A stretch of 64,000 nt of DNA from Candidatus Omnitrophota bacterium (GCA_037146775.1 JBAWWL010000002.1:21935-85934), one strand, 5' to 3'; positions 3,827 through 64,000 are shown, counted from the stretch's first letter. Notes: generated by a model from the sequence alone, not told the origin. Made by a program: numbers and translations.

Positions 3827-4285
3827 ATGAAGGAAATAGTCGGTACATACGCAGGCAAAGGCAAAAGGATCGCTATCGTTATTTCGCGTTTTAATGAGTT
3901 TGTCGGTAAAGAGCTGCTTGCCGGTTGTGTTGATACGCTTAAGAAATCAGCGGTGGAGGAAAAAGACATTACTGTTGTCTGGGCGCCGGGATCTTTTGAA
4001 ATACCTCAGATAATAGGTAAGCTCGACACGAAGAAATTTGATGCCGTAATAGCCTTGGGTGCCCTTATCCGGGGCGACACGCCTCATTTTGATTATATCG
4101 CGGCGGAAGTTTCAAAAGGGGTGGCCCGGCTTTCGCTTGATAAAAATATTCCAATGATTTTCGGCGTTATTACCACCGACACGTTAGAACAGGCGATCGA
4201 GCGCTCGGGTACAAAACAAGGCAACAAAGGTAGAGATGCGGCCTTGGCAGCCTTAGAAATGGCAACTCTTTATCAGCAAATATAA
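3827..4285 (+). CDS. ribH: 6,7-dimethyl-8-ribityllumazine synthase
   Basis: ATG at 3827 after GAGGAGGG RBS; the ORF-track start at 3788 is upstream read-through; GKGKRIAIVISRFNEFV is the lumazine synthase signature. Confidence 0.88.
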   Translation: MKEIVGTYAGKGKRIAIVISRFNEFVGKELLAGCVDTLKKSAVEEKDITVVWAPGSFEIPQIIGKLDTKKFDAVIALGALIRGDTPHFDYIAAEVSKGVARLSLDKNIPMIFGVITTDTLEQAIERSGTKQGNKGRDAALAALEMATLYQQI

Positions 4286-4360
4286 AAAATTAAAAATAAA
4301 AAATTGGGGTTTGCGGATATCCTTATATTAATTTTTTGATATTTAATATTTAATTTTTTA

Positions 4361-4801
4361 ATGAGGTTACGTTCAAAAGCGAGAGAGATAACCCTACATT
4401 TGCTTTATCAGATAGAAATGTCTAAGGGTGACTGTCATCAGGCCTACCAGGATTATCTTTCCAATTATCCTCAGAGACAAGAAGCTGCAGATTTTGCTCT
4501 CCTGTTGTTGGATGGCGTAACAAACAATATAAGCGGTATTGACGCGTTGATTAAAAAATATGTCAAGAACTGGGAGATTGATCGTATGGCGGTGATTGAT
4601 CGTAACATTTTGCGTCTTGCTTGCTTCGAGTTGATATTTTTGGAAGAAATTCCGCCGAAAGTATCCATCAACGAAGCGATAGAATTGGCAAAGCGTTTCG
4701 GCGATATCGATTCCCCGCGATTTGTAAATGGCATTCTCGACAAAATTTATAAAATGGAGAACAAAGACAAAAATGCCGTCCAGCCCCAAGAAGAAGTGTG
4801 A
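4361..4801 (+). CDS. nusB: Transcription antitermination factor NusB
   Basis: ribH-nusB adjacency; RMAVIDRNILRLACFELIF...EAIELAKRFG NusB core. Confidence 0.85.
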   Translation: MRLRSKAREITLHLLYQIEMSKGDCHQAYQDYLSNYPQRQEAADFALLLLDGVTNNISGIDALIKKYVKNWEIDRMAVIDRNILRLACFELIFLEEIPPKVSINEAIELAKRFGDIDSPRFVNGILDKIYKMENKDKNAVQPQEEV

Positions 4802-39716: not shown

Positions 39717-40702
39717 GGTTTAGTTTGTGGGCTTGTAGCTATAGGAATACGGCAAAGTTTTTGTATGGCAGAGAATATTTCTAATTTTGTTTTTGCGTGA
39801 CAAGCCTGCTCCCGTAACGGTTTTGTTCCAGGGATACCCTTGGTATACCAATTAAAGAACTTGCGGAATAAAATCAATCCTGTTCGCTCGCCGTAAAAGT
39901 CTAAACATAATTGAAGGTGGATGTGCATTGTTTTTGTTCTTTCGTCCATGCCCGGCCCGTGATGCAGTGTGGTATGTCTAAAGTATGCTTTCATTTCTTC
40001 AAATATCCAAGGATTACCCAGGGCACCGCGGGCGATAACTACTGCGTCGCAACCTGTTTCTTCAAACATTTTTTTCACCGCTTCGCCTGAAAAGATATTT
40101 CCGCTCGCGATAACAGGAATGTGAAGCGCCTTCTTTACTTCTCCGATAGTTTTGTAGTCAATATCTCCGCTATATCCTTGTATTCTTGTCCGACCATGGA
40201 TAAAGAGTCCTTGGATGCCGGCATCTTGAGCATATTGAGCCACTTCTTTGGCATTCACGGATTGTTTATCCCATCCGGAGCGTATTTTAACGGTAATGGG
40301 AATGCTGGTGTTTTTTACCATTATTGCAAGTAATTCCTGCAGTTTTTTAGGCTGTTTAAGCAGACATGCTCCTTTTCCTTTAGAGACGACTTTTTTTGTA
40401 GGACAGGCAGCATTAAGATCAATGAGGTTAAACTCGTATTTTTGTAATATTTCCAATGCTTTAATGATGAATTCCGGGTCATTACCCAGAAGCTGAATGC
40501 CTAGCGGTTTGTCGGTTTCGTTTGTTGAAAGCTTGCGTTGTAGTTTTTTGCTCTTGTAATATAGGGAGTGTACGTCAATCATTTCCGTGAAAGCTAATTC
40601 GCAGCCAAACGAACGGTTTATGGTCCGGAAAGGCAAATCGCTTATTCCAGATAAGGGTGCGAGGATAAATGGTGAATTGAGGCTGAGGCTGCCTATCTGT
40701 AA
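39713..40702 (-). CDS. dus: tRNA-dihydrouridine synthase
   Basis: MLQIGSLSLNSPFILAPLSGISDLPFR Dus N-terminus; the ORF-track N-terminal 40 aa are upstream read-through. Confidence 0.8.
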   Translation of the reverse strand, partial: LQIGSLSLNSPFILAPLSGISDLPFRTINRSFGCELAFTEMIDVHSLYYKSKKLQRKLSTNETDKPLGIQLLGNDPEFIIKALEILQKYEFNLIDLNAACPTKKVVSKGKGACLLKQPKKLQELLAIMVKNTSIPITVKIRSGWDKQSVNAKEVAQYAQDAGIQGLFIHGRTRIQGYSGDIDYKTIGEVKKALHIPVIASGNIFSGEAVKKMFEETGCDAVVIARGALGNPWIFEEMKAYFRHTTLHHGPGMDERTKTMHIHLQLCLDFYGERTGLILFRKFFNWYTKGIPGTKPLREQACHAKTKLEIFSAIQKLCRIPIATSPQTKP

Positions 40703-40857
40703 CATATAACTATAACCATATAAAGTTTTTGTTACTTTCCAGACGAGAAAGCAGTGGGTTTGTGAATGTATAAAAATCACAAAAGACACACGAACGAATT
40801 CATATGATACCGGTAGAAACATTCTATTGCAAGATTTAATTTTTATCAGTATAATCT

Positions 40858-41400
40858 ATGTCTATGAAAGAAGAATTGCGTTTGTTATTGGAAAAAGAAG
40901 CTCTTTTTAAGGGCGAAGTGCGGCTTTCCTCCGGTAAAATAAGTAATTTTTACATAGATGTAAGAAGGGTAAGTTTAAGCTCTCAGGGTATTTATTTGAT
41001 TTCACACTTATTCTGGCAGCTTATAAAAGACGATCACATAGCCGCCATGGGCGGGCCGACCTTGGGGGCTGATCCTCTTGTCGCCGGTGTGTGTATGCTT
41101 GCGCACGAAAATAAGCGTTCACTCGGAGGGTTTCTTATTCGTAAAACTCCCAAAGAGCATGGAAGACAGCAATTGTTGGAAGGGAAAGAGCTTGCACCCG
41201 GCGCACGGGTAGTGGTAGTGGATGATGTGGCGACAAGCGGCGCTTCTTTAGTGAAAGCTGTCGAAATATTACAAAACGAACGGATACAGGTGGTAAAAAC
41301 GCTTGTGGTAGTCGATAGAGAAGAAGGAGCCGCGCAAAATCTAGCCAAACTTAACTGTCCGCTTGTTTCACTTTTTACTAAGAGCGATTTCTCCAAATAA
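40858..41400 (+). CDS. pyrE: Orotate phosphoribosyltransferase
   Basis: FKGEVRLSSGKISNFYID and VVVVDDVATSGAS PRPP-binding motif. Confidence 0.85.
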   Translation: MSMKEELRLLLEKEALFKGEVRLSSGKISNFYIDVRRVSLSSQGIYLISHLFWQLIKDDHIAAMGGPTLGADPLVAGVCMLAHENKRSLGGFLIRKTPKEHGRQQLLEGKELAPGARVVVVDDVATSGASLVKAVEILQNERIQVVKTLVVVDREEGAAQNLAKLNCPLVSLFTKSDFSK

Positions 41401-41405
41401 TTTGA

Positions 41406-42278
41406 ATGATTACACAGATGATACGCAGATTCGACCGATGGCAGAAGTCAGAGGTCAGAAGCCAGAGGTTAGAAGCCAGGGCTAATATTTCTGTCCTCTG
41501 TCATCTGTCGTCTGTTCTTTGTCCTCTGTTTTTTAGTCTATTTTTAGGCGGGTGTGTCACCACCGAATACAACGTCGGGACGCACAAAGAAGATATCATG
41601 TTCTATTCTACCGAAAAAGAGGTGGCAATGGGGCAGAATATCCACAAAGAAGTTGTAAAACAATTCAAGCTATCGGGGAACCCCAGTGACATCGAACGGA
41701 TAAATACCATCGGTAATAAAATAGCCGGAGTTTGTGACCGTAAAGAAATACATTATTATTTCTATGTTGTTGGCGCTAATGATAAAGGCGAGGGAGATGA
41801 AAAAAATGCCTTTAGCGTTCCCGGAGGCTACATTTATGTTTTTAAAGCTTTGCTTGATGATTTAACCGATGACGAGCTCGCCTTTGTTCTTGCTCACGAA
41901 ATCGGCCATGTGGTATCGAGGCATGTCGTCAAGAAACTGCAGGCAGCAATGGGTTATGATCTTATTTTGATTGCTTCGGCGGGCGCGGCCCGCGATCCAG
42001 CCTTTACTCAAGGGCTTTCATATGCGCTTGCCCAAATTATGGCAGCATATTCAAGGGAGGACGAGTATAATGCCGATGAGTTGGCGATAAAATATACTCA
42101 AACCTGTCAATACGATTCTAAGTCAGGCATAGAGGTGTTGGAAAAGCTTTACAAGGAAAACAAAAAAGTTATTCGGCCGCTTTCTTACTTTAGAACTCAC
42201 CCTTACACCGCTCAACGAATTGCCCACATGAGAGAAACCCTGCATCTTCCCTTGACCGCCGCCGACTATATCAACTAA
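41406..42278 (+). CDS. M48-family zinc metallopeptidase, probable lipoprotein (start codon uncertain)
   Basis: HEIGHVVSRH HExxH motif; LFLGGC lipobox; the N-terminal ~45 codons are encoded by the two heptamer repeat arrays. Confidence 0.65.
   Translation: MITQMIRRFDRWQKSEVRSQRLEARANISVLCHLSSVLCPLFFSLFLGGCVTTEYNVGTHKEDIMFYSTEKEVAMGQNIHKEVVKQFKLSGNPSDIERINTIGNKIAGVCDRKEIHYYFYVVGANDKGEGDEKNAFSVPGGYIYVFKALLDDLTDDELAFVLAHEIGHVVSRHVVKKLQAAMGYDLILIASAGAARDPAFTQGLSYALAQIMAAYSREDEYNADELAIKYTQTCQYDSKSGIEVLEKLYKENKKVIRPLSYFRTHPYTAQRIAHMRETLHLPLTAADYIN
41442..41531. repeat. Two mirrored heptanucleotide tandem arrays: (CAGARGY)x6 - AATATT - (TCTGTYN)x6
   Basis: Purine-rich array 41442-41483, central palindrome AATATT 41484-41489, pyrimidine-rich array 41490-41531; counted directly. 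Confidence 0.8.
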
Positions 42279-42355
42279 TGGCGGATTAAATAATTCAGAT
42301 AGTAACGAATTAAAGGATTAATGTATTGATGCTAATTTTTGTAATATAGCCGCGT

Positions 42356-43309
42356 CTAAGGCATGAAAGATTTTAGTATCATCAAGAAGGATAAGTTAAA
42401 GGTGTTGTGTATAATGTGTAGTGTGATGGGGGCGGAAATATGCTGTGTTTTTTCGTATACATAACAGAGTACGATACTGAGAAAAAGTAACGGAAGTATG
42501 TCTTGCGGTGTTCTGTGCAACATGGAAAAAATAACCGATGAAAGGATAGCGGAAAGCCAAAAACCATATCGTTTTCTGGCGCATTTATAGATAATAGCTC
42601 GAAAAAATAATTCTTCAGCCACCGGCCCAAACAGAATTACCTGTAAAACAATAAGAGCAATAATTTTAGTATTTTTAAAAGCAAGGAAAAGTCCGATAAC
42701 AGGATTTTGGACTATTTTCATGCCGCTTTTCTCGGTAAGAAAGGTATTGAATAGAAGTAGCCCCGTGATAAGCGGCAATATGGTTATATAGACTTTAACC
42801 AGATAGTCGAAATCATTTTTGGCTATGGAGAAGTCTAAGAATTTCCCGGGGAGAAAGCAGCGTATTATGCCTATGATGCCTAATTCTAGGGCCAGGTTAA
42901 GCGTGAGAGCCAATTCAAGCCTGTTTATATTCAGTTGGAAGATAGCCGCACTTATCTCTATTACGTAAGTGCAAAAAACAAATAAAGTGACCAAGAAAAT
43001 AAGCTTTCCGGTTGTTTCTTGATCAAGCGGAAACGATTTCTGTATTGTTTCGAATTGTAGGGATGCTTTTTTCCGAAACAGCTTGATGGAGTATAATATT
43101 AAATGAACAGTTCCCGTCAGTAGCAGAAATATAAACAGAGTAACGAAAAAAACGAATGTTTGAGTATGCGGGTTATTAGTCAGTCTTTGTTTATCAAAGG
43201 TAGGCTCGTAAGCGTTTTTCGTGGAAAATTTCGAAGGAATAGAGTTTTGTAACAGCACTATAGCGATGATGCAGACGAGAGTTAATAGAATATATTTATT
43301 TTTTTTCAC
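42356..43309 (-). CDS. CPBP-family intramembrane metalloprotease (CAAX protease/Abi family)
   Basis: EELFFRAIIY...FSMLH motifs in a multi-TM protein. Confidence 0.7.
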   Translation of the reverse strand: MKKNKYILLTLVCIIAIVLLQNSIPSKFSTKNAYEPTFDKQRLTNNPHTQTFVFFVTLFIFLLLTGTVHLILYSIKLFRKKASLQFETIQKSFPLDQETTGKLIFLVTLFVFCTYVIEISAAIFQLNINRLELALTLNLALELGIIGIIRCFLPGKFLDFSIAKNDFDYLVKVYITILPLITGLLLFNTFLTEKSGMKIVQNPVIGLFLAFKNTKIIALIVLQVILFGPVAEELFFRAIIYKCARKRYGFWLSAILSSVIFSMLHRTPQDILPLLFLSIVLCYVYEKTQHISAPITLHIIHNTFNLSFLMILKSFMP

Positions 43310-43441
43310 TATTTTTTATTGTTTCTGTTCAGCAACTAATGGAATATTCCATTAGTTATGTTTCTGTAGTGATATCCTGCTCGTAGTCTTCCTGTCTCGT
43401 AATTTTTAGGGCGCCGTATGTTTTTGATAAAGTAAAGAAAA

Positions 43442-43529
43442 CGGAGGAGAGAGGATTTGAACCTCTGAGGGACACAAGGCCCCCACTGGTTTTCGAGACC
43501 AGCGCATTCAACCACTCTGCCACTCCTCC
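43442..43529 (-). tRNA. tRNA-Ser (anticodon CGA)
   Basis: Manual fold: acceptor GGAGGAG/CTCCTCC, 3-bp D stem, anticodon loop CUCGAAA, long variable arm, T-loop TTCAAAT; 88 nt. Confidence 0.85.
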
Positions 43530-43632
43530 AGGTGAAATTTTACGCAAAACGTAAAAGCCCAACGGTTTTTCCGCCAAAATTTGTTCTACAAATTTTGGCG
43601 AGACCTCGCCTAAATAATTATTAATACGGCGG

Positions 43633-43670
43633 GCGAGACCAGCGCATTCAACCACTCTGCCACTCCTCCA
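43633..43670. repeat. 38-bp exact direct copy of the 5' half of tRNA-Ser (acceptor through anticodon stem)
   Basis: CGAGACCAGCGCATTCAACCACTCTGCCACTCCTCCA identical to 43493-43530. Confidence 0.85.
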
Positions 43671-44140
43671 AGAGCCAGCGTACTTACGCATGGCCGAACA
43701 ATATCGTTGAGTTAATGTAGCTAAGGAAGTTTTACCACCTACCAACTGTTCAGGTCCCTGGCTCTTCATAGGGACTCTGTCTCTTTTGATGAAAAGCTGC
43801 AAGAATACCTAAGATGTAATTCACGCTTTGCTGTCACCCTGGAGTTATCTCAGGGAGGACAGATTATCTTACCAAGAATTCTCAAACAAGCAAAAATACG
43901 CAAGGGTGGGGGTTTCCGCCCTGGGCGCCTGCCCGCCGTGTATAACTTCACAATAACGGTAATAGGTTAAGGCTACGGTTACGATGCCCGTTTCGTTCTT
44001 CGGTTACGTCATTCGTCTTTATTTTTATATATACTTAAGCCGTTACCGCTAGACGTCACCGATACGGGCACCCTTACCCTTGCCGTTATCGAAATACTGA
44101 AGAACTACACTGCCCGGCGAGGCAGGGATTTGCCTTAATT

Positions 44141-44387
44141 AAAAGTGCGCGGGGGGGGACTTGAAACAAATCTCGCCGGAGGCGAGCTTCTTAGTATTTG
44201 TTCCAAGACCACTCTCGCATAAAATAAACTATAGTTGGCGCGCAAAACTTTTAGAACAAGCAAAAGTGCGCGGGGGGGGACTTGAAACAAATCTCGCCGG
44301 AGGCGAGCTTCTTAGTATTTGTTCCAAGACCACTCTCGCATAAAATAAACTATAGTTGGCGCGCAAAACTTTTAGAACAAGCAAAAG
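44141..44387. repeat. Two 121-bp tandem units plus a partial third copy, each beginning with the last 25 nt of tRNA-Leu (T-loop through discriminator + CTTTT)
   Basis: AAAAGTGCGCGGGGGGGGACTTGAA at 44141, 44262 and 44383 (the last is the tRNA itself); the intervening 96 bp are identical and contain the hairpin CTCGCCGGAGGCGAG. Confidence 0.9.
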
Positions 44388-44469
44388 TGCGCGGGGGGGG
44401 ACTTGAACCCCCATGGAATTACCCATACGCTTCTGAGACGTATGCGTCTGCCAATTTCGCCACCCGCGC
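44388..44469 (-). tRNA. tRNA-Leu (anticodon CAG)
   Basis: Manual fold: acceptor GCGCGGG/CCCGCGC, 3-bp D stem, anticodon loop CUCAGAA, 13-nt variable arm, T-arm GGGGG-TTCAAGT-CCCCC; 82 nt. Confidence 0.8.
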
Positions 44470-44759
44470 ATTTTTCAAAGGATATGGCACAGTCCTCAAG
44501 AGTTGCCCCCATGCGCTTTTGAGGCGCATGCGTATGTCAACCCCGTCAACTTCCGCACAAAGTTATTACGTGTTTATTAATCCGCATTAACTAAGTATTG
44601 CCACGAAGTATTCCAATTATATCAAATAATTTGCTTGTCAGGAAAGATTTTTCTGCGCAAGTACCCTAAAGGTCAATAAACTATAGAAATTTAATAGGGC
44701 TGGCGGAGCAGCTATTTTATATCTTTCTCAACGAGATATCCTATGTTATAATTTTTTAC

Positions 44760-45707
44760 ATGATGGTTGTTGCGCTTGCGATTATTAAATCGACGAGTAT
44801 TGCTTTACTCGGATATTATTTGTATAAGAAAGATTATATTAATACAAAAGTCCTTGATTTCTTAATCTTTTTTGTAATAAATTTTGCCGTACCTTGCCTG
44901 GCATTCGCCCATCTTGTAGAAAACCTTAAAGTCAATACCCAGCCTTCCTTGGGGGTGTTTCTTTTGCTCAGCATTATTATATTTGTTATCAGTTTTCTTG
45001 TTGGGTTGCTTTTTTCATTTAGGAAGAGCCACGAATTTAAAAGAGAATTTATCAGTCTGGTAAGTTTTCAAAATAGCGGTTATCTGCCGATGAATATCGC
45101 ATTATTTCTTTTTCCCCCGGTATTGCGGGAAACATTTCTGGTGTATATTTTCCTCTATATTTTGGGATTCGATATCATTATGTGGTCGATAGGCAGTTTT
45201 TTTATTTTCAAGAAGAAAGAGGATGAATTTAAGATAAAATCAATTCTTACCCCGCCGATTATAAGCATAGCGCTGGCTCTTGTTTTAGTATATACCGGCG
45301 GCGCACGATTCCTGCCTGACATATTTATCGGGCCGGTTAAAATGGTAGGCGAAACGAGTTTTGTGCTTTCTATGATTATCGTAGGCTGCTGGCTTGCCCG
45401 CGTCGAGCTCAACGGATTATATAAAAAACTACTGATTATTTTGGAAGCAAGTTTTGCCAAGCTCGTTATATTGCCGTCTCTATTTTTGTTTATAGTTGTG
45501 AAGCTGGATGTAACCCCTCTTTTGGGATTGTTTATTATTTTACAGGCGGCAATGCCTTCGGCAGTAAGCTTGCCTATAGTAGTGAATTTACGTAATGCTG
45601 ACAGTGAATTCGTTTCACAGGGAGTGCTGGTTACGCATCTTATCAGCATTATAACCGTTCCTTTGTGGTTGGGATTATATGTAAGGCTGACGCATTTTTC
45701 TTTTTGA
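44760..45707 (+). CDS. AEC-family (auxin efflux carrier-like) membrane transporter
   Basis: ~10 TM helices, 315 aa, typical AEC/malate permease N-terminus. Confidence 0.65.
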   Translation: MMVVALAIIKSTSIALLGYYLYKKDYINTKVLDFLIFFVINFAVPCLAFAHLVENLKVNTQPSLGVFLLLSIIIFVISFLVGLLFSFRKSHEFKREFISLVSFQNSGYLPMNIALFLFPPVLRETFLVYIFLYILGFDIIMWSIGSFFIFKKKEDEFKIKSILTPPIISIALALVLVYTGGARFLPDIFIGPVKMVGETSFVLSMIIVGCWLARVELNGLYKKLLIILEASFAKLVILPSLFLFIVVKLDVTPLLGLFIILQAAMPSAVSLPIVVNLRNADSEFVSQGVLVTHLISIITVPLWLGLYVRLTHFSF

Positions 45708-45738
45708 AATAATTTGAGAGCGCGGGCATCGTTATATT

Positions 45739-46200
45739 ATGAAAATAATCGCCACTAACAGAAAAGCCATTCGTGATTACACTTTGCTGGAAACCTATGA
45801 AGCGGGGATAGAGCTGAAGGGAACCGAAGTCAAATCTCTTCGTGTCCGAGGTTGTTCTGTCGAGGAAGCTTTTGGCAGGGTAGAGGGTAGCGAAATCTTT
45901 CTGTATAACATGCATATCCCTGAATATGAGAAAAGCTCTTATTTCAGGGCGGAGCCGAAACGAACCAGAAAATTGCTGTTACATAAGAAAGAAATCAAGC
46001 GGTTGATCGGGCTCATCAGCCAAAAAGGTTTTACCATCATTCCCTTAAAAATGTATTTCAACGATAAGGGATTTGCCAAGGTAGAGATCGCTCTGGCTAA
46101 GGGTAGAGTTTTGTATGATAAGCGCCGCAAAATCAAAGAAGCGTTAACGGAAAGAGAGACGCGCAGAATTTTGAAGGGATTTAATAACCGCGGCAGGTAA
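45739..46200 (+). CDS. smpB: SsrA-binding protein SmpB
   Basis: NRKAIRDYTLLETYEAGIELKGTEVKSLR canonical SmpB N-terminus and basic C-terminal tail. Confidence 0.9.
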   Translation: MKIIATNRKAIRDYTLLETYEAGIELKGTEVKSLRVRGCSVEEAFGRVEGSEIFLYNMHIPEYEKSSYFRAEPKRTRKLLLHKKEIKRLIGLISQKGFTIIPLKMYFNDKGFAKVEIALAKGRVLYDKRRKIKEALTERETRRILKGFNNRGR

Positions 46201-46329
46201 TATTGTTTGTAAGTGGCGTAGCGACCGGTGCGCTCAAAATTGCATAGTGTTTTATTGGCCCGGTGATATAATTGTTTGCGAAAGACATCTTATTGTGATG
46301 GTATGCGTGATGTGAGCGGAGAATAAGTT

Positions 46330-47103
46330 ATGAATGACATACTGCGCGTAGGAATAGATGCCGCGCAAGAAGCGGGCAAATTGTTGTTAAAGAATTTCGG
46401 TAAAGTAACTCATATCGAACAAAAAGGCGATCGCGATTTTGCCACCAATCTCGATAAAGAGGCAGAACGCCTGATCGTAGAGAGGATTAAAACGAAATTC
46501 CCCGCTCACGGTATTTTTGCCGAAGAGGGGGGAAGCAGCGGCTTAAACAGAGAGTATCTGTGGATAATCGATCCTCTTGACGGGACACATAATTTTATTC
46601 ATAACATAGATATTTTTGGCGTCTCCATAGGCGTGGTGCGTAAAGGAGCATTTGTTGCGGGTGTTATTTATATGCCCAAAGACAATGAATTGTATGTGGC
46701 TGAAAAAGGGGGCGGGAGTTATAAGAATGGCAAGAGAATTTCTGTTTCGTCTACAGAAAACCTCAAAGAATGTTCGATCTCGTTTGATTCCAGTATCCGT
46801 TATTCGCCCAAAATAATGCTCAAAGTTTTGGGCAGATTAGCCAAAAACGTATTTAATATACGCATGTTTGGTTCTTCCGCCCGGGTGTTGTCATACCTTG
46901 CCGAAGGAAAACTTGATTTTGCGGTAGAGTTTTACGATCGCCCTTGGGATTTTGCTGCCGGTGCATGTATTATCGAAGAAGCAGGTGGAAGAATCACGAC
47001 GTTAAAGGGGAGAAAACTTACCTATAAAACAATCGGTTATATTGCTTCTAACAGTGTCTCTCATAACAAAGCGCAGGCAATAGTTCGAAATTATATTGGT
47101 TGA
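46330..47103 (+). CDS. suhB: Inositol monophosphatase family protein (SuhB-like)
   Basis: WIIDPLDGTHNF and metal-binding motifs of the IMPase fold. Confidence 0.8.
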   Translation: MNDILRVGIDAAQEAGKLLLKNFGKVTHIEQKGDRDFATNLDKEAERLIVERIKTKFPAHGIFAEEGGSSGLNREYLWIIDPLDGTHNFIHNIDIFGVSIGVVRKGAFVAGVIYMPKDNELYVAEKGGGSYKNGKRISVSSTENLKECSISFDSSIRYSPKIMLKVLGRLAKNVFNIRMFGSSARVLSYLAEGKLDFAVEFYDRPWDFAAGACIIEEAGGRITTLKGRKLTYKTIGYIASNSVSHNKAQAIVRNYIG

Positions 47104-47135
47104 TTTTTCCAAAATATTGAGGACAATATATACAT

Positions 47136-47888
47136 ATGAGAAAATATACTAATATAGTTTTATTGTTGGCAGGTGCTGTTTTGTTTGTGGGTATTGCCAG
47201 TAATTTCTGTTTTGCACAAACAGAAAATGCCGACACCGGTATGACGGCGCAGCCTTCGGTAGGCGCTCCTATACAAAAATGGCTGCAAAAAAAAGGTTTA
47301 AGCCCCAACGTTTTTTTTCGCGATGATTATAGCTTTTTGGACGGAGACTTTGAATTGGCCGGAGAAATAACAACAGATATTATGTCCGGAGATTTTTCCA
47401 TTGATGATCCCGAGATTCTCAAACAGGCGAAAGAGAATATCGAGAACGGTAATACGTTATTTTTTCCATGGGATAGCAAAGGAATAGCGAAGGTGGTTAC
47501 CGTAGAAGGAAATGCTATGGCAGAAGTAAAAACAGGCACGGACGGCATCGCTGCTATCAGCCAAGATATCGGCTTCAAGAACGTAAAGGCAGAGTTCACC
47601 TTCGATGTGTACCCGGTAGAGGTAAACGATGCGGATATCTTGGATGTCTTTTTGGCTGATTTTGGAATGAAAACAGACGGGGTGCCTTCTCGCGTGGCGG
47701 TTGCGAAATATAAATTATCTGAGTTGTCGTCGCCGGAGCATATTGTCATAGACTTTTCGAAAAATAAAGAAGTAAAAGATTTCTTGGAAAAAGATATAGA
47801 ACAGCGGTTTAATATCATTTGTCAAATTACCGCCAGGCGGGATGAGCCGGCTACGGTACGTTTTGATAATTTTAAGATGTCGTATTGA
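47136..47888 (+). CDS. Secreted hypothetical protein
   Basis: Signal peptide (LLLAGAVLFVGIASNFCFAQT); no recognisable domain. Confidence 0.5.
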   Translation: MRKYTNIVLLLAGAVLFVGIASNFCFAQTENADTGMTAQPSVGAPIQKWLQKKGLSPNVFFRDDYSFLDGDFELAGEITTDIMSGDFSIDDPEILKQAKENIENGNTLFFPWDSKGIAKVVTVEGNAMAEVKTGTDGIAAISQDIGFKNVKAEFTFDVYPVEVNDADILDVFLADFGMKTDGVPSRVAVAKYKLSELSSPEHIVIDFSKNKEVKDFLEKDIEQRFNIICQITARRDEPATVRFDNFKMSY

Positions 47889-47998
47889 TAGATGCCCGCA
47901 TAATGGTTGTTTTGTCTCGGGTTGACGAAAGCGTGTTAAATGCGGTATAATATAAGAGTGGTTTCGGTAATAGGCTAGATAATCAAAAAGGAGGTCGT

Positions 47999-48391
47999 AT
48001 GAGAACATACCTTTTAATTCTATTCAGTATTTTGGCAGTGTCATTTTGTGGAGTCGTTTTTGCCCAAGGAGCCGACGAAAATATTACCATAACCACTTTT
48101 TATCCATCACCGAAAGGTATTTTCAAAACTATGGAAATATTGAATGGGAACAGCCGTATCCAGATGAATAATGCTGACGGTTTTCCTAATATTGATTTTA
48201 ATAATAATGCTACTGAGACACCATATGACTACCGTATTTATCTGATAGATGACAACTATTTTGGTATCAGAGGCGGCGCCTCCCGGACAGGAAGCGCGCC
48301 AACCTATGACATTAATTCCGGTGTTCGTTTCACCGATAGAGCCGGCAACCCCAACAGAATTGAAGTAGGCGAAATCTGGATTTGCTACTAG
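47999..48391 (+). CDS. Small secreted hypothetical protein
   Basis: Signal peptide; strong upstream promoter TTGACG-18-TATAAT (47914-47943) and AAAGGAGG RBS. Confidence 0.5.
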   Translation: MRTYLLILFSILAVSFCGVVFAQGADENITITTFYPSPKGIFKTMEILNGNSRIQMNNADGFPNIDFNNNATETPYDYRIYLIDDNYFGIRGGASRTGSAPTYDINSGVRFTDRAGNPNRIEVGEIWICY

Positions 48392-48499
48392 CGGAGGTTT
48401 GACATCACGCACAAGGCTTTCAAGACAACCAATGAAGCAGCGATAGTAACGGTTGATACTGACCTATATTCCCTTCCCACCATATACGCCGCCAGTTAT

Positions 48500-48811
48500 G
48501 TGTTCTTGGATAAGGCATATATCTATTTGGACAAAGATGCTCACAGCCGAGTAGCAGTGTGGATATACCCCAAAGATAAAAGCTGCGATATCGGGCAACT
48601 TGGCATGGAGTTTTCCAACGAGTTGCTTAACTACGCCCACTATTTTACCAGCTTAAAAGCGAATGCCGGAATTATGAAGGCTTTACTGCAGCGTGCACTT
48701 TTTTCAGCCGCCCCCTCTTTAGTGAATGAGATGGGAAAACAGGAAGTCGAAAGCGTTATCGACGAGCTTGAGCAGGAAGAAAAGAAACGCATACCCAAAA
48801 AAAGTAAGTAA
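48500..48811 (+). CDS. Hypothetical protein (first gene of the radical-SAM operon; GTG start)
   Basis: 103-aa ORF whose TAA stop overlaps the next start (TAATG). Confidence 0.4.
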   Translation: MFLDKAYIYLDKDAHSRVAVWIYPKDKSCDIGQLGMEFSNELLNYAHYFTSLKANAGIMKALLQRALFSAAPSLVNEMGKQEVESVIDELEQEEKKRIPKKSK

Positions 48812-49032
48812 TGCACCATTTTTTGTGTACACAGGGCAGCAAACAACTGGTAAGATTGCATAAAACGCTTTATCGAAAAGAAATTTTACAGCGCGCAAAA
48901 GAATTAGAGCCCGGTACGGTTGGCGCTGTGCAGTCAGACGGACAGTATTACCTGGTAGAGTTATCCGTGGACACCGAAGAAGACTATTTTTCATTTTTAA
49001 ATTATTTGATTTACCTGGGCAGGCACCATTAA
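48811..49032 (+). CDS. Small hypothetical protein, possible PqqD-like recognition element (speculative)
   Basis: 73 aa; translationally coupled to the 48500 ORF; 15 nt before the radical-SAM gene. Confidence 0.4.
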   Translation: MHHFLCTQGSKQLVRLHKTLYRKEILQRAKELEPGTVGAVQSDGQYYLVELSVDTEEDYFSFLNYLIYLGRHH

Positions 49033-49047
49033 CGGAAGCAGAACCAG

Positions 49048-50481
49048 ATGGAAAAAACAATATCATCAAATCTGAGAGCAAAGATACGGAAAGATAAAAA
49101 TTTTACCATAATTCCTTTTAACCGGCGGCCCATTAAAGAAAGTTATTTGGTTTCTAACGTACTTGGCGGATGGGATTTCCTTAACGAGGAAGAATTCCGG
49201 GCATTTAATTCCTTCAACCTCGATAGAGACAGTTCTCTTTTTACGCGCCTTCATGAAAGGGGTTTGGTGGCTGACGAACGCAACATAGAAAGCCTCATAG
49301 AAGGTTATCGGACGCTCAACGCACATCTTTTTAGCGACACATCTTTGCATATTGCGGTAGTCACTACGCGCTGCAACCTGCAATGCACTTATTGCCAATC
49401 GAAATCGCCGCAGCGCAAAGATATGGATATCGAAGTCGCTGCGCGTGTTTTGAAATATCTCTTTGAGGTGCGCACTACTGCCGTAACCCTGGAATTACAG
49501 GGAGGCGAACCGCTGCTCAATTGGGAAACGGTTAAGTTTCTGGTAGAGCATGCCCGCAAATTTAATAAAAGCAAAAATTTACAGCTGGCACTGGTAAGCA
49601 ACTGTGTCCTTTTGGATGAAGTAAAAATGAAATTCTTAGCTGATTTTAATGTATCCTTGTGCTGTTCGCTGGACGGCCCCCGTCAGCTTCATGACGCATA
49701 TCGCCGGTTTCCTAACGGGGAAGGCAGCTATACACAGGCCGTTAAAAATATAAAGTTCTTCGAGGAAAAGTTTGGCAGAAAAGTTGGGCTTTTGCCAACC
49801 ATTACCAAACATTCTTTCGGCTATTTTAAGGAAATAGTTGATGAACACCTGCGTTGGAAGCAACCCGACATAGCTTTACGGCCGGTAAATCAAATAGGCG
49901 GCGCTTGCACCTATTGGCCGGCTTTGGGGTATTCTGCCGAAGAGTTTATCGTATTTTACAAAAATTCTATGGATTACATCCTGGAGTTGAACAAAAAAGG
50001 TATTTTTATACGCGAGAGGATGGCTGCTTTTATGCTTAAGAAAATTCTTTCTCGCGAAGACCCCGGCTTTGTCGAGCTGATGAATCCCTGTGGAGCGGGC
50101 AGGGGGCAAATAGTTTATATGCCGGATGGTAGTTGTTATCCTTGCGATGAAGCCAGGATGGTGGAGGATGAATTGTTTTGTTTGGGTAATATCCTCAAAG
50201 AAGACTACGATATACTGATGCGCAAGGATAATCTTCTCCATCTTTTGGAATCTTCAGTCATGAACCTGTGGGATTATAATTCTGCATTTTTTCCCTGGAC
50301 AGGAACGTGTCCGGTGGTAAACTATTATACACAGAAGAATTTTGTTCCTAAAATCGCCTGTTCACCGTTACATAAGGTTTATAATTTTCAGTTTCAGTAC
50401 ATTTTTGAAAAGATGCTGGAGGATAAAGATAACATGAATATATTTAAAAGATGGGTTAAAAAGGAGGTAGACCATGCCTAA
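49048..50481 (+). CDS. Radical SAM / SPASM-domain protein (peptide-modifying maturase-like)
   Basis: CNLQCTYC (CxxxCxxC) at ~residue 113 after a ~100-aa N-terminal extension; C-terminal SPASM cysteines (CGAGRGQIVYMPDGSCYPCDE...CLGN...CPVV). Confidence 0.8.
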   Translation: MEKTISSNLRAKIRKDKNFTIIPFNRRPIKESYLVSNVLGGWDFLNEEEFRAFNSFNLDRDSSLFTRLHERGLVADERNIESLIEGYRTLNAHLFSDTSLHIAVVTTRCNLQCTYCQSKSPQRKDMDIEVAARVLKYLFEVRTTAVTLELQGGEPLLNWETVKFLVEHARKFNKSKNLQLALVSNCVLLDEVKMKFLADFNVSLCCSLDGPRQLHDAYRRFPNGEGSYTQAVKNIKFFEEKFGRKVGLLPTITKHSFGYFKEIVDEHLRWKQPDIALRPVNQIGGACTYWPALGYSAEEFIVFYKNSMDYILELNKKGIFIRERMAAFMLKKILSREDPGFVELMNPCGAGRGQIVYMPDGSCYPCDEARMVEDELFCLGNILKEDYDILMRKDNLLHLLESSVMNLWDYNSAFFPWTGTCPVVNYYTQKNFVPKIACSPLHKVYNFQFQYIFEKMLEDKDNMNIFKRWVKKEVDHA

Positions 50482-57507: not shown

Positions 57508-57782
57508 TCACTCGTTAGTATTAGCCTGCGCCCATAGTTTTCCGATAGCGTTTAATGTATCGGGAAGCGATTGAATATGCAATAGATTAGAAGTAATTTG
57601 ATATTTTGCGCCCGTAGCTTAATGAGCACATCATTTTTTCAAGCACGAAGTACGCAGTAAAAATGATAATGCGAATTAACCCCGCAGCGCTTCTTGTAAA
57701 TTTTCTGTGAAAATTTATGAGATATTTTAGGCGCAAGGGGTATGTGGTGTGATGATTGTGTTTCCCGTTCTTTAGAAAATTT

Positions 57783-57856
57783 GCGCCCGTAGCTCAATTG
57801 GATAGAGCAACTGCCTTCTAAGCAGTAGGTTGCGTGTTCAATTCACGCCGGGCGCG
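57783..57856 (+). tRNA. tRNA-Arg (anticodon TCT)
   Basis: Manual fold: acceptor GCGCCCG/CGGGCGC, D-arm GCTC-AATTGGATA-GAGC, anticodon loop CUUCUAA, T-loop TTCAATT; 74 nt. Confidence 0.85.
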
Positions 57857-57938
57857 TATAATTATTAGTGTTCGCTTGATATACTATTTTACGCCATAAA
57901 ATTCTTGATGTAGCACACAAAGAGGAGAGCAATATTCT

Positions 57939-61089: not shown

Positions 61090-61776
61090 ATGAGTATATT
61101 CAACAGATTTCTATTAGGTCTTGTCCTGGTGCTAACGTTAACTAGCCAGACATTATATGCCCAGCAAGGTGACGCTGACACAAAGAAACTCGCCGAGATC
61201 CGAGCTAAGGCCGAGAAAGGCGATGCCAAAGCCCAGTGGGAATTGGGTAAAGCATTCTCTAACGGCGAGTTTGGGCTGGAGAAGGATTGGCAGGAAGCGG
61301 TGAAGTGGATTCGTAAGGCCGCCGAACAGAATGACGCCGTTGCTCAAGATAGTCTGGGTTTTTGCTACAGATATGGCCAAGGCGTGGCGCAGGATACGGT
61401 GGAAGCGGTAAAGTGGTTTCGTAAGGCCGCCGAACAGAATGACGCTATGTCTCAATTCAACCTAGGTTGCTGTTATTACTATGGCACTGGTGTGGCGAAG
61501 GATGATGTGGAGGCGGTAAAGTGGTTTCGTAAGGCCGCCGAACAGAATTCTGCCCTAGCTCAAAGTAATCTGGGTGAATGCTACTTCAGGGGCATAGGTG
61601 TGGCGAAGGATATGAAGGAGGCCTACAGGTGGTTCTTGTTGGCCGCGGCACAAGGTGATGAAGATGCAAAGGGCCGCGTGAGGCATCTTGAAAAGAAACT
61701 GAAAAAGGATCAAATTGCAGAAGTAAAGAAACAAGTGGCTGAATGGACCGAACAGCACAAGAAAGCCACTAACTAA
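61090..61776 (+). CDS. Secreted Sel1-repeat (TPR-like) protein
   Basis: Signal peptide; four ~36-aa Sel1 repeats (EAVKWFRKAAEQNDA...LG.CY..G.GVA.D); 108-bp nucleotide repeats nearly identical. Confidence 0.75.
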   Translation: MSIFNRFLLGLVLVLTLTSQTLYAQQGDADTKKLAEIRAKAEKGDAKAQWELGKAFSNGEFGLEKDWQEAVKWIRKAAEQNDAVAQDSLGFCYRYGQGVAQDTVEAVKWFRKAAEQNDAMSQFNLGCCYYYGTGVAKDDVEAVKWFRKAAEQNSALAQSNLGECYFRGIGVAKDMKEAYRWFLLAAAQGDEDAKGRVRHLEKKLKKDQIAEVKKQVAEWTEQHKKATN

Positions 61777-63049: not shown

Positions 63050-64000
63050 ATGTCGAGTCTTCTATGTAAACTCGGATTGCACGCGTGGGGAAAGTGTTCA
63101 GACCAACCAGGAAGGCACGACACTAAGCAGTGTGGCAGTGGTTGTTCTTGTAGCTGTATTCGAGAAGGCTGTGGGGCAACTCGCCATAAGTGGGGGCAGG
63201 GGTTTAGGCGCTGCGAATGCCTTCGCTTTCCTTGCCAGGCACGTAACCATATGTGGAATGGTTGTCAGTGTATCAACCCCGGGTGTGGCGGAAAACGCGA
63301 CGCGCAGCACGTCTGGGATGGATGCAAGTGTGTAACCTGTGGTAAAGAACGAGACGAAGGCCACAAATGGGATGGGTGCAAATGCTCAACTTGCGGTAAG
63401 GAGCGGGATGAAAGTCACCAATGGAAAGATTGCAAGTGCTCGATATGCAGGAAGACCCGCGAGCAAGAACACAACTGGGATGGATGTAGATGCGCAGTGT
63501 GTTTCAAGATACGTAATCAAGAGCATTCGTGGACTAATGGAAGATGCTCAAGGTGCGGGAAGTTCAACTTCTCGTCGCTTGAAGAGGCCCTTCCTTTTAT
63601 GAAGCAATACGAGAGCATGGAAATCTTCAAGAGGCCAGGGCTGATCTCTGCCATTACTGACCTCCACGCCTCCTGCGATGAAAATGCGAAGCGGCTGGTT
63701 ATCCAGGGGCTGCTTGACATCTTGCGCGTTCTTCCGTCACCGCCACTTGACGACGCCACCTTTTCGACCATCTGTGCTGCAATTGCAGCATTCGGATGCA
63801 TCGGCGATGATTCCTCAGAGGTTCTAGATTGTCTCGATTCGTTTGTCACACGAGATCCTAACTATCGTGCTATCGAGATTCTTGGTGAGCTCGCGGAAAA
63901 GTCAGATGCCGCATTGTCGCGACTCCTAGCTTGGCATCGCCGCGTTGATAAGGCACAGGTGGCTGGATACTCACTGATAAATATTAGACGTGAATCGATG
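63050..64000 (+). CDS. Cysteine-rich tandem-repeat protein (seven ~18-aa H-x-W-x-G-C-x-C-x2-C units) with helical C-terminal region; runs off the window end
   Basis: Frame-2 ORF from ATG 63050 (RBS AAAGGAG 5 nt upstream), open to position 64000 with no stop; absent from the ORF track because it has no stop in the window. Confidence 0.65.
   Translation, partial: MSSLLCKLGLHAWGKCSDQPGRHDTKQCGSGCSCSCIREGCGATRHKWGQGFRRCECLRFPCQARNHMWNGCQCINPGCGGKRDAQHVWDGCKCVTCGKERDEGHKWDGCKCSTCGKERDESHQWKDCKCSICRKTREQEHNWDGCRCAVCFKIRNQEHSWTNGRCSRCGKFNFSSLEEALPFMKQYESMEIFKRPGLISAITDLHASCDENAKRLVIQGLLDILRVLPSPPLDDATFSTICAAIAAFGCIGDDSSEVLDCLDSFVTRDPNYRAIEILGELAEKSDAALSRLLAWHRRVDKAQVAGYSLINIRRESM

Follow-up and report, generated by a model that had tools for sequence, protein, structure and literature searches.

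A 121-bp tandem unit at tRNA-Leu(CAG) of a Candidatus Omnitrophota bacterium belongs to a dispersed family of hairpin-bearing spacers next to copies of tRNA gene ends

A stretch of 64,000 nucleotides from a Candidatus Omnitrophota bacterium (GCA_037146775.1, JBAWWL010000002.1:21935–85934), referred to as the window in the following, raises the question why the 3' end of a tRNA-Leu(CAG) gene is found two more times beside the gene, embedded in identical 121-bp units. The 96-bp spacer that separates the copies, here called the S element, is a member of a dispersed family with approximately 16 members in nine loci, nearly all of them in Candidatus Omnitrophota. The finding exceeds a local stutter, as the family is structurally conserved, horizontally distributed and directed at the ends of tRNA genes.

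The tandem repeat at tRNA-Leu(CAG)

Positions 44141–44407 of the window form a perfect tandem repeat with a period of 121 and 2.2 copies, with 100% matches and 0 indels according to Tandem Repeats Finder (TRF). The 25-mer AAAAGTGCGCGGGGGGGGACTTGAA occurs exactly three times in the 64 kb, at 44141, 44262 and 44383, and was found in none of 100 shuffles of the sequence. An earlier reading made from the DNA alone (the sequence-only reading) had described these three copies with an exact 121-bp period and identical 96-bp spacers between them; the former is borne out by TRF, exact search and shuffles, the latter by repeat search and direct comparison. It had also placed a complete tRNA-Leu(CAG) at the last copy. 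ARAGORN and Infernal agree on this gene (44387/8–44469) and locate it on the minus strand, which had been overlooked, as had a larger hairpin that pairs with the tRNA fragment and the 5'-end duplications at tRNA-Ser and tRNA-Arg. Read in the sense of the tRNA, the gene is followed by a spacer, a 3'-end copy, a second spacer and a second 3'-end copy. The 25-mer comprises the T-loop (TTCAAGT), the 3' strands of the T-stem and of the acceptor stem, the discriminator A and 5 nt of trailer (CTTTT); CCA is not encoded at the end of this gene. The features of the repeat are the following.

44388–44469, minus strand: intact tRNA-Leu(CAG) (ARAGORN; Infernal tRNA model, 54.6 bits)
44383–44407: proximal 25-nt direct-repeat copy, formed by the last 20 nt of tRNA-Leu(CAG) and 5 nt of trailer
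44262–44382, plus strand: unit 2, tRNA-proximal, with the antisense 25-nt tRNA 3'-end copy (44262–44286) and the 96-bp S element (44287–44382) (TRF; repeat search; nhmmer, 89 bits against the family profile)
44141–44261, plus strand: unit 1, distal, with the 25-nt tRNA 3'-end copy (44141–44165) and the 96-bp S element (44166–44261), 100% identical to unit 2 (TRF; repeat search; nhmmer)
44281–44328, plus strand: composite hairpin of unit 2, identical in make-up to that of unit 1 (hand parse and architecture-only scan)
44160–44207, plus strand: composite hairpin of unit 1 (RNAfold, hand parse with pairing check, architecture-only scan)
44160–44171, left side of the unit 1 hairpin: flank CTTG from the tRNA T-loop (44160–44163), A, outer stem AACAAAT (44165–44171)
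44172–44186, centre of the unit 1 hairpin: inner stem CTCGCC-GGA-GGCGAG, followed by the 9-nt bulge CTTCTTAGT
44196–44207, right side of the unit 1 hairpin: outer stem ATTTGTT (44196–44202), C, guide CAAG (44204–44207) pairing with the flank
44208–44261, plus strand: right side of the S element, proximal to the tRNA, with lower conservation within the family and 86% identity (51/59 aligned positions) to its counterpart in locus L076 (alignments, substitution counts)

An Rfam scan of positions 42000–46500 with E ≤ 1 returned two tRNAs and a weak sX4 hit (20.4 bits, E = 0.33, below its threshold) overlapping tRNA-Ser, and gave no match to the S element. Four open reading frames (ORFs) of 51–102 aa that run over the repeat were dismissed, since they derive from the repeat, overlap the tRNA and are not called in the public assembly.

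The number of units differs between two assemblies. Contig CAZTHQ010000035.1 (GCA_964613555.1) corresponds to positions 40639–49707 of the window over 8,948 bp with 100% identity, except that it contains exactly one 121-bp unit instead of two. Logan SRR12676968 also contains identical sequence. Either one population is truly polymorphic at this locus or an assembler collapsed or expanded the repeat. It is a real possibility, if not the expected case, that the tandem count is such an artefact, with one unit or another number in the real genome and an extra copy created by traversal of a de Bruijn cycle. The second assembly fits this explanation, contig breaks at these tRNA loci are frequent in other assemblies, and as 121 bp is shorter than common k-mers such as k141, the graph would be unable to resolve counts of two or more units. 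Against an artefact, the S-repeat-S junction assembles only if it is present in the reads, and the independent genome of L074 has a similar structure with 2.3 copies at 100% identity, built from a different unit. An artefact would in any case touch the unit number alone, as the one-unit form already holds element and repeat. The contigs of L060, L066–L068, L071, L075 and L081 end inside tRNA genes of the neighbourhood or tens of bases from them, which is consistent with repeats or strain variation breaking assemblies.

The second unit arose either from a second insertion into the regenerated site or from unequal crossing-over or slippage between the 25-bp and then the 121-bp repeats. Stutter or slippage, as proposed in the sequence-only reading, may turn one unit into two; it leaves the origin of the first unit unexplained. 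A unit without variation or any other occurrence had been named there as the mark of simple local slippage. Related units elsewhere and the one-unit assembly were found instead.

Hairpin architecture and the S-element family

The GC hairpin noticed in the sequence alone is real (CTCGCC-GGA-GGCGAG), but it is merely the inner part of the composite hairpin listed above, which has a terminator-like score on both strands. The anatomy of the family was derived from 12 parsed members, read from the displaced tRNA fragment toward the intact gene. A member starts with the end of the fragment, which is NTTG in 3' types and GCGG in 5' types, followed by one unpaired base. An outer stem of 6–7 bp encloses an inner GC stem of 6–8 bp, with a loop of GGA, GCA, GAA, AAA, GCGA, GATA or TGAAA, and a T-rich bulge of 9–16 nt that is confined to the 3' side. 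The return strand of the outer stem is followed by C and by four bases complementary to the last four of the fragment, here called the guide. The family was defined by this order of parts, from the partial tRNA end and its single unpaired nucleotide through the outer stem, the inner GC stem, the 3' bulge and the return strand to C and the 4 nt complementary to the flank, next to the cognate tRNA. Both units of the window conform to it, with 4/4 guide pairing in the architecture-only scan and 89 bits in nhmmer.

Pairing is maintained across six distinct outer stems and eight distinct inner stems, except for one outer-stem mismatch in L060 and the end positions of the 8-nt inner stems. The pairs of flank and guide are CTTG:CAAG at tRNA-Leu(CAG), TTTG:CAAA at both tRNA-Pro, GTTG:CAAC at tRNA-Leu(TAG) and GCGG:CCGC in the 5' types. 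All are complementary, and because flank and guide change together with the tRNA species, the guide tracks tRNA identity. This covariation was counted on the hand parse, as a MAFFT alignment of the 12 hairpins was inconsistent with the structure in the inner stem. With TTG.AAC over GTT.CAA, the hairpin base nearly reproduces the T-loop duplex, and a 1-nt change of the guide suffices for the T-loop shift between tRNAs. The junction is constant, lying at antisense TTG/AAC in the T-loop (sense GTT/CAA) in 3' types and at GGCGG/AATTGG, after position 13, in 5' types. Comparison of two close pairs of members yielded differences at 2/90 hairpin positions and at 14/111 positions elsewhere in S (Fisher p = 0.008), which identifies the hairpin as the constrained part of the element.

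Members were retrieved with a degenerate pattern of the hairpin core, with a scan for the architecture alone and from syntenic loci located via AEC-transporter homologues. Their host tRNAs are Leu(CAG), Leu(TAG), Pro(CGG) and Pro(TGG), plus a decayed tRNA-Leu in L072, and they are located at the 3' or the 5' end. At tRNA-Leu(CAG), members were found in the window, L045, L060, L074 and L076. The orthologous gene in L045 has a similar hairpin upstream, flanked by a 17-nt repeat of the tRNA 5' end. A degenerate pattern covering the hairpins of the window and L045 led to three metagenome loci, at tRNA-Pro(CGG) in L057 and L059 and at tRNA-Leu(TAG) in L058. All three have the hairpin, in antisense orientation, immediately 3' of the gene, with the 3' end of the respective tRNA duplicated ahead of it. 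L060, the closest relative (86% AEC identity), has one 5' unit, and L076 has one 3' unit. Two identical 133-bp 3' units were observed in L074 together with three diverged 5' units; its 3' array (2.3 copies, 100% identity) consists of a unit sequence different from that of the window. L072 has three 5' units ahead of the dead tRNA-Leu. Behind tRNA-Pro(TGG) in L061, a single array combines three units that differ from each other and are set apart by TGGTCGGGGCGAGTGGATTT, which is present in four perfect copies, three of them with an additional G at the end. Arrays are thus made of identical units in the window and in L074 and of differing units in L061, in L072 and on the 5' side of L074. The length of S is uniform at 96–120 bp, and the repeats observed measure 13, 17, 19, 21, 25, 37 and 44 nt (overall about 13–45 nt).

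The architecture-only scan, which required neither a tRNA nor a guide, covered 543 kb and yielded 13 family matches. All of them lie at most ~450 nt from a live or decayed tRNA gene and show 4/4 guide pairing; two unrelated matches obtained besides have a guide pairing of 1–2/4. Within the window, the family profile and the architecture scan match only units 1 and 2. An exact search with the junction 23-mer in metagenome contigs gave no match, and blastn of the unit against phage and plasmid records yielded nothing. One hairpin-core match in viral contigs (L069) was rejected as an unrelated, phage terminator-like hairpin that has neither outer stem nor tRNA. The 5'-type spacers of L045 and L060 contain promoter-like sites facing the tRNA; as shuffles give as many, these sites were not used as evidence. 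Trailer similarity was also discarded as a guide to the native side: ATTTAAGGCAATT of L012 resembles the window after the last repeat and the trailers of L045 and L060 resemble the start of S, but these similarities are short and AT-rich and point in opposite directions.

A comparable arrangement was observed in L024 (Elusimicrobia, positions 4200–4420), where tRNA-Leu(GAG) has a ~70-nt copy of its 3' end and trailer 165 nt downstream, with the junction again after ACTTG in the T-loop. The spacer there contains GGTTCACGGC...GCCGTGAACC, is rich in GC and has an unrelated sequence. It is possible that the phenomenon is not restricted to Omnitrophota.

Origin of the units and rival explanations

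At the orthologous tRNA-Leu(CAG), which neighbours the genes for the AEC transporter and SmpB, units are absent in L061, L063–L065 and L072, L076 has one, the window has two, and L074 has two of another sequence type. L066–L068 and L071 are uninformative for unit presence, as their contigs end 2–95 nt past the tRNA. The genomes compared are about equally distant from that of the window, with AEC identities of 61–65%. The AEC-transporter homologues retrieved for the neighbouring gene bear names of Candidatus Omnitrophota, in agreement with the origin of the window. Between the window and L076, the S elements are identical at 90/99 positions (91%) and the tRNAs at 78/82, whereas the AEC gene is 65% identical at the nucleotide level. 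The flanking intergenic DNA past the displaced fragment is unalignable between the two, and similarity begins exactly at GGGGGACTTGAA. As judged from these alignments, the unit is conserved far above its neighbourhood, which is a horizontal signal.

Arrays in which different units are joined by perfect repeats (L061, L072 and the 5' side of L074) point to independent insertions. Perfect repeats between different units would be hard to obtain by divergence of a tandem duplication, since three copies of a 13-nt block would seldom all remain intact when units diverge by 25%. The displaced fragment is decayed in L059 (three changes) and in L076 (shortened copy), where the insertion looks older, as is expected of a relic.

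This tRNA end is also used by classical elements. Two viral contigs (L003, 1597–2654; L004, 273–1265) contain a tyrosine integrase gene and, within ~50 nt, the 3' 48 nt of a tRNA-Leu, reaching from the anticodon-loop side to the gene's 3' end and terminating in the window's 20-mer, which is the classical attP arrangement for this tRNA class. The unit has no similarity to the attP flanks of these contigs. In a genome scan with the 20-mer, 7/52 matches were fragments outside any tRNA gene. On the 3' side of the orthologous tRNA-Leu(CAG), L063–L065 have a gene for a 528-aa large serine recombinase (457–2043 in L063) and L061 has an MmeI-type restriction-modification gene (1–2624). The tRNA-Leu(CAG) site is a general hotspot for foreign DNA.

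On balance, the 121-bp units are probably copies of a non-autonomous mini-element that targets tRNA loops. Such a module would comprise the 96-bp S element plus a duplicate of the tRNA sequence between insertion point and gene end. It would enter a tRNA gene at a loop, in the window at the T-loop between sense GTT and CAA. The gene would be regenerated on one side, leaving the tRNA intact, and the displaced end fragment would remain on the other side as a direct repeat. The final 4 nt of the fragment are predicted to pair, at the hairpin base, with a 4-nt segment inside the element, so that a folded or cruciform form would rebuild a duplex copy of the target loop. This folded site may be the substrate of a recombinase encoded elsewhere in the genome. 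By analogy with integron attC and CTXphi attP, the likeliest enzyme would be a tyrosine recombinase, and the module would bring along its own copy of the tRNA end. We infer the enzyme, the intermediate and that the tRNA fragment is carried along rather than duplicated from the target. Site-specific recombination in trans is favoured because classical elements use this tRNA end and because a repeat from loop to gene end is the published signature; the variable repeat length (13–44 nt) fits a tRNA end carried by the module. Of the two interpretations offered in the sequence-only reading, a tandemly amplified miniature element with an att-like core is the better one and comes close to the evidence (loop-to-end repeat, copy-number variation, relatives elsewhere).

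Several points weigh against this mini-element. One hairpin type occurs at four tRNAs, which is awkward if each element must carry the cognate end, and the spread of repeat lengths would be awkward for a transposase with a fixed stagger. The hairpin resembles a bidirectional intrinsic terminator, and a host function is possible. The family sample is small (~16) and was gathered starting from the window's own sequence. All evidence stems from metagenome assemblies, in which tandem units shorter than the assembler k-mer are not reliably countable. No recombinase, transposase or Cas1 gene was found in the 64-kb window (annotated ORFs and called genes) or beside any member examined, and we infer the enzymology as a whole. 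The lack of an integrase in the window had been stated before and agrees with this search.

Transposition with a long target-site duplication, the main rival, would instead require a transposase or Cas1-like integrase that makes staggered cuts in the tRNA loop and just past the gene end. Only the ~96-bp S element would be inserted, gap repair would duplicate 13–45 bp, and repeated hits would build arrays in a manner similar to CRISPR growth. We consider this explanation doubtful, although it accounts more easily than a carried tRNA end for the spread of one hairpin type to Leu(CAG), Leu(TAG), Pro(CGG) and Pro(TGG), each time flanked by the tRNA's own end, and a guide would need to change by only 1 nt to match a new T-loop. 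There is a precedent in casposons, which integrate at a tRNA 3' end with an unusually long duplication: in A. boonei, the casposase duplicates 15 bp overlapping the tRNA-Pro 3' end and needs a TpsiC-loop segment (PMC5137440). The repeat length of the S elements, however, is not fixed, terminal inverted repeats were not found by repeat search or at the inspected ends, and the window contains no cas1 or transposase gene. Moreover, the tRNA-adjacent part of S differs among tRNAs, as if it travelled with a tRNA-specific segment. If S were a non-mobile host module, it would be a conserved tRNA trailer (a bidirectional terminator and/or an rttR-like processed small RNA) that was locally duplicated along with the tRNA end by slippage or unequal crossing-over and kept by selection. 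The terminator-like hairpin on both strands, its higher conservation compared to the rest of S and the identical units within the window and within L074 are in line with such a module. So is tyrT/tyrV of E. coli (NC_000913, checked), where 178-bp units stand head to tail in 3.1 copies, each with a 19-nt copy of the tRNA-Tyr 3' end (AATCCTTCCCCCACCACCA) and a T-loop boundary, in the region annotated with the small RNA RttR and tpr. A host module is nevertheless improbable, as presence and absence vary at the orthologous tRNA among equally distant relatives, one array (L061) is filled by different S sequences, S has no Rfam match and the displaced fragment decays in L059 and L076. The 91% identity between genomes with unalignable flanks also argues against it, as does the opposite orientation at 5' ends, where a terminator would sever the tRNA from its promoter.

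The scars of repeated integration and excision proposed in the sequence-only reading would derive from integrase-bearing islands or prophages at tRNA-Leu that have mostly been deleted since, with the spacers as remnants of attL and attR arms. That the tRNA end is a real target is indicated by the two viral contigs with tyrosine integrase and the 3' 48 nt of tRNA-Leu, by the seven 20-mer fragments outside tRNA genes, and by the serine recombinase and restriction-modification genes beside the orthologous tRNA. Even so, this origin is very improbable, since independent remnants are unlikely to be all 96–120 bp long with the same covarying hairpin and guide, and the unit resembles neither the viral attP flanks nor any phage or plasmid record. 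The uniform length and covarying hairpin of units at several tRNAs point to complete units, not to remnants of random deletion.

Compared to known systems, tyrT/tyrV is the closest formal analogue of the proposed mini-element, as in the window a tRNA is likewise followed by tandem units with its own 3'-terminal segment. The tyrT unit is confined to a single locus, with 95% identity between units, is not known at other tRNAs and lacks the S architecture (no match in the architecture scan of the E. coli locus, L070). The units of Omnitrophota, in contrast, are a family dispersed over several loci, in which 5'-end versions and arrays of non-identical units occur. Among tRNA-integrating elements, a repeat from loop to gene end is the rule, and 3'- and rarer 5'-fragment types as well as tandems occur (Islander, PMC4383910). 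Islands and prophages share with S a regenerated gene and a direct-orientation cognate fragment that extends from the T-loop or anticodon loop to the gene end (PMC4383910). The intact tRNA of the window with its 25-nt copies at 44141 and 44262 and the T-loop junction shows the same pattern. Islands, however, span kilobases and encode their own integrase, as Islander demands, whereas the S spacers are gene-free, 96–120 bp long and have no integrase within 64 kb.

Cis-mobilizable elements (CIMEs) lack an integrase, keep attL and attR and form arrays by integration into a flanking att site (PMC5704250). The units of the window are flanked by att-like repeats and have no integration or transfer genes, and no sign of decay from an integrative and conjugative element (ICE) or an integrative and mobilizable element (IME) was found. 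CIMEs are decayed kilobase ICEs or IMEs of arbitrary content, whereas S elements are uniform, tiny and structurally conserved; this uniformity therefore gives S the look of a designed minimal unit rather than of a decay product. Integron attC and CTXphi attP(+) are similar to S, by analogy, in the structure-conserved imperfect hairpin, in extrahelical bases on one side, in a base that rebuilds a duplex recombination site and in arrays of short units (PMC4792948). AAC...GTT stands at the stem base in 6/8 parsed members (3' types and L045), the exceptions being L061_Pro3_1 and L074_Leu3 (stems ATGTAAT and ATGTGCT), and the box spacing is unlike that of attC. In the window, S differs from integrons in its tRNA-loop target and in the lack of R/L box spacing, intI, attI and cassette ORFs. 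No recombinase was found in the window, and the units are devoid of plausible ORFs.

IS200/IS605 and its miniature derivatives are small hairpin elements whose flanking target is recognised by pairing with a short internal guide at the foot of the hairpin. They create no duplication, have a hairpin at both ends and carry their guides 5' of the hairpin. An S element has its guide 3' of the hairpin and never lacks the long direct repeat. Terminal inverted repeats, a fixed duplication length, cas1 and polB characterise casposons, and none of these were seen for S in the window. The units are distinguishable from miniature inverted-repeat transposable elements and DDE transposons, as no inverted repeat joins the unit ends and repeat lengths range from 13 to 44 nt, and likewise from casposon derivatives, for which a 14–15-bp duplication and cas1 would be expected. 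A CRISPR array does not match either: its spacers would be unique, whereas those of the window are identical (96 bp), the repeated sequence derives from a tRNA, and no cas genes were found in the window.

Other tRNA loci of the window and significance

Besides the array, the window contains the following tRNA-derived features.

43634–43670, minus strand: 37-nt copy of the 5' half of tRNA-Ser(CGA), from the 5' end to the anticodon loop, 140 nt upstream of the gene (43441–43530) (repeat search, 100%)
43531–43633, minus strand: hairpin-rich 103-bp spacer of tRNA-Ser with GGCGAG-GT-CTCGCC and a perfect 13-bp hairpin CGCCAAAATTTGT/ACAAATTTTGGCG
57606–57623, plus strand: copy of the 5' end of tRNA-Arg(TCT) (TTGCGCCCGTAGCT.AAT), 175 nt upstream of the gene (57782–57857)
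44485–44557, minus strand: 5' part of a decayed tRNA-Leu (anticodon arm CAA), directly upstream of the live tRNA-Leu(CAG)
43885–43916, minus strand: 3' part of a decayed tRNA-Leu(CAA) (T-arm, acceptor strand), 73% similar to the 25-mer and the start of the spacer

In L074, the core of the tRNA-Ser spacer is again found upstream of tRNA-Ser, together with a shorter, decayed copy of the tRNA. The tRNA-Arg copy is followed by an AT-rich hairpin, ATCATTTTT...AAAAATGAT (region 57606–57781). Both spacers are without the S architecture, and the scan revealed no end duplication for tRNA-Pro and tRNA-His of the window. The public assembly annotates a gene for a 137-aa protein that spans tRNA-Ser together with its 5' copy (43356–43802, minus strand); it is almost certainly a spurious ORF made by the repeat. 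Palindromes of the type CCTGCC...GGCAGG were observed near tRNA genes at 44110–44125 of the window, at 647–666 of L058 and upstream of tRNA-Leu in L061 and L048, and one of them interrupts the displaced tRNA fragment of L058. They may represent a separate repeat similar to repetitive extragenic palindromic (REP) sequences. Imperfect tandem repeats at 61293–61612 (108 bp, 3.0 copies, 74%) and 63314–63424 (54 bp, 2.1 copies, 75%) are probably protein repeats in ORFs without a Pfam match.

The live tRNA-Leu(CAG) and the array lie between the two halves of the decayed tRNA-Leu. When the halves are joined, ARAGORN calls a tRNA-Leu(CAA) at 4/2,750 join points. L072 is alike at 2195–2480, with an insert of ~150 bp. 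The split dead gene suggests that an older tRNA gene received a cassette with an entire tRNA gene in it. A non-coding stretch of 224 bp (43917–44140) separates the last repeat from the 3' half of the dead tRNA and contains an imperfect palindrome rich in GGTAAC, GTTACC and TAACGG with the AT-rich centre TTTATTTTTATATATAC.

Taken together, we tentatively propose that S elements could represent a previously undescribed class of minimal mobile DNA, consisting of ~100-nt hairpin cassettes that home to tRNA loops (T-loop, D-loop and perhaps the anticodon loop), rebuild the target duplex in their folded form via a short, evolvable guide and stack in arrays at tRNA ends, to some extent like integron cassettes or CRISPR units. 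Larger versions could carry a whole replacement tRNA gene, which is suggested because the live tRNA-Leu(CAG) sits inside a split dead tRNA-Leu in the window and in L072. Literature searches found no description of such elements, which is weak evidence of absence.

If mobile, S elements would rank with the smallest site-specific integrating units known and provide a natural case of target choice by a few base pairs between element and target, which is relevant to the biology of mobile elements and to the design of programmable insertion. In practice, they break assemblies at tRNA loci and create false genes, such as the one called across tRNA-Ser, and island finders that require an integrase would overlook or discard them. 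For Omnitrophota, the findings suggest that tRNA genes turn over by insertion and replacement, beyond point mutation alone.

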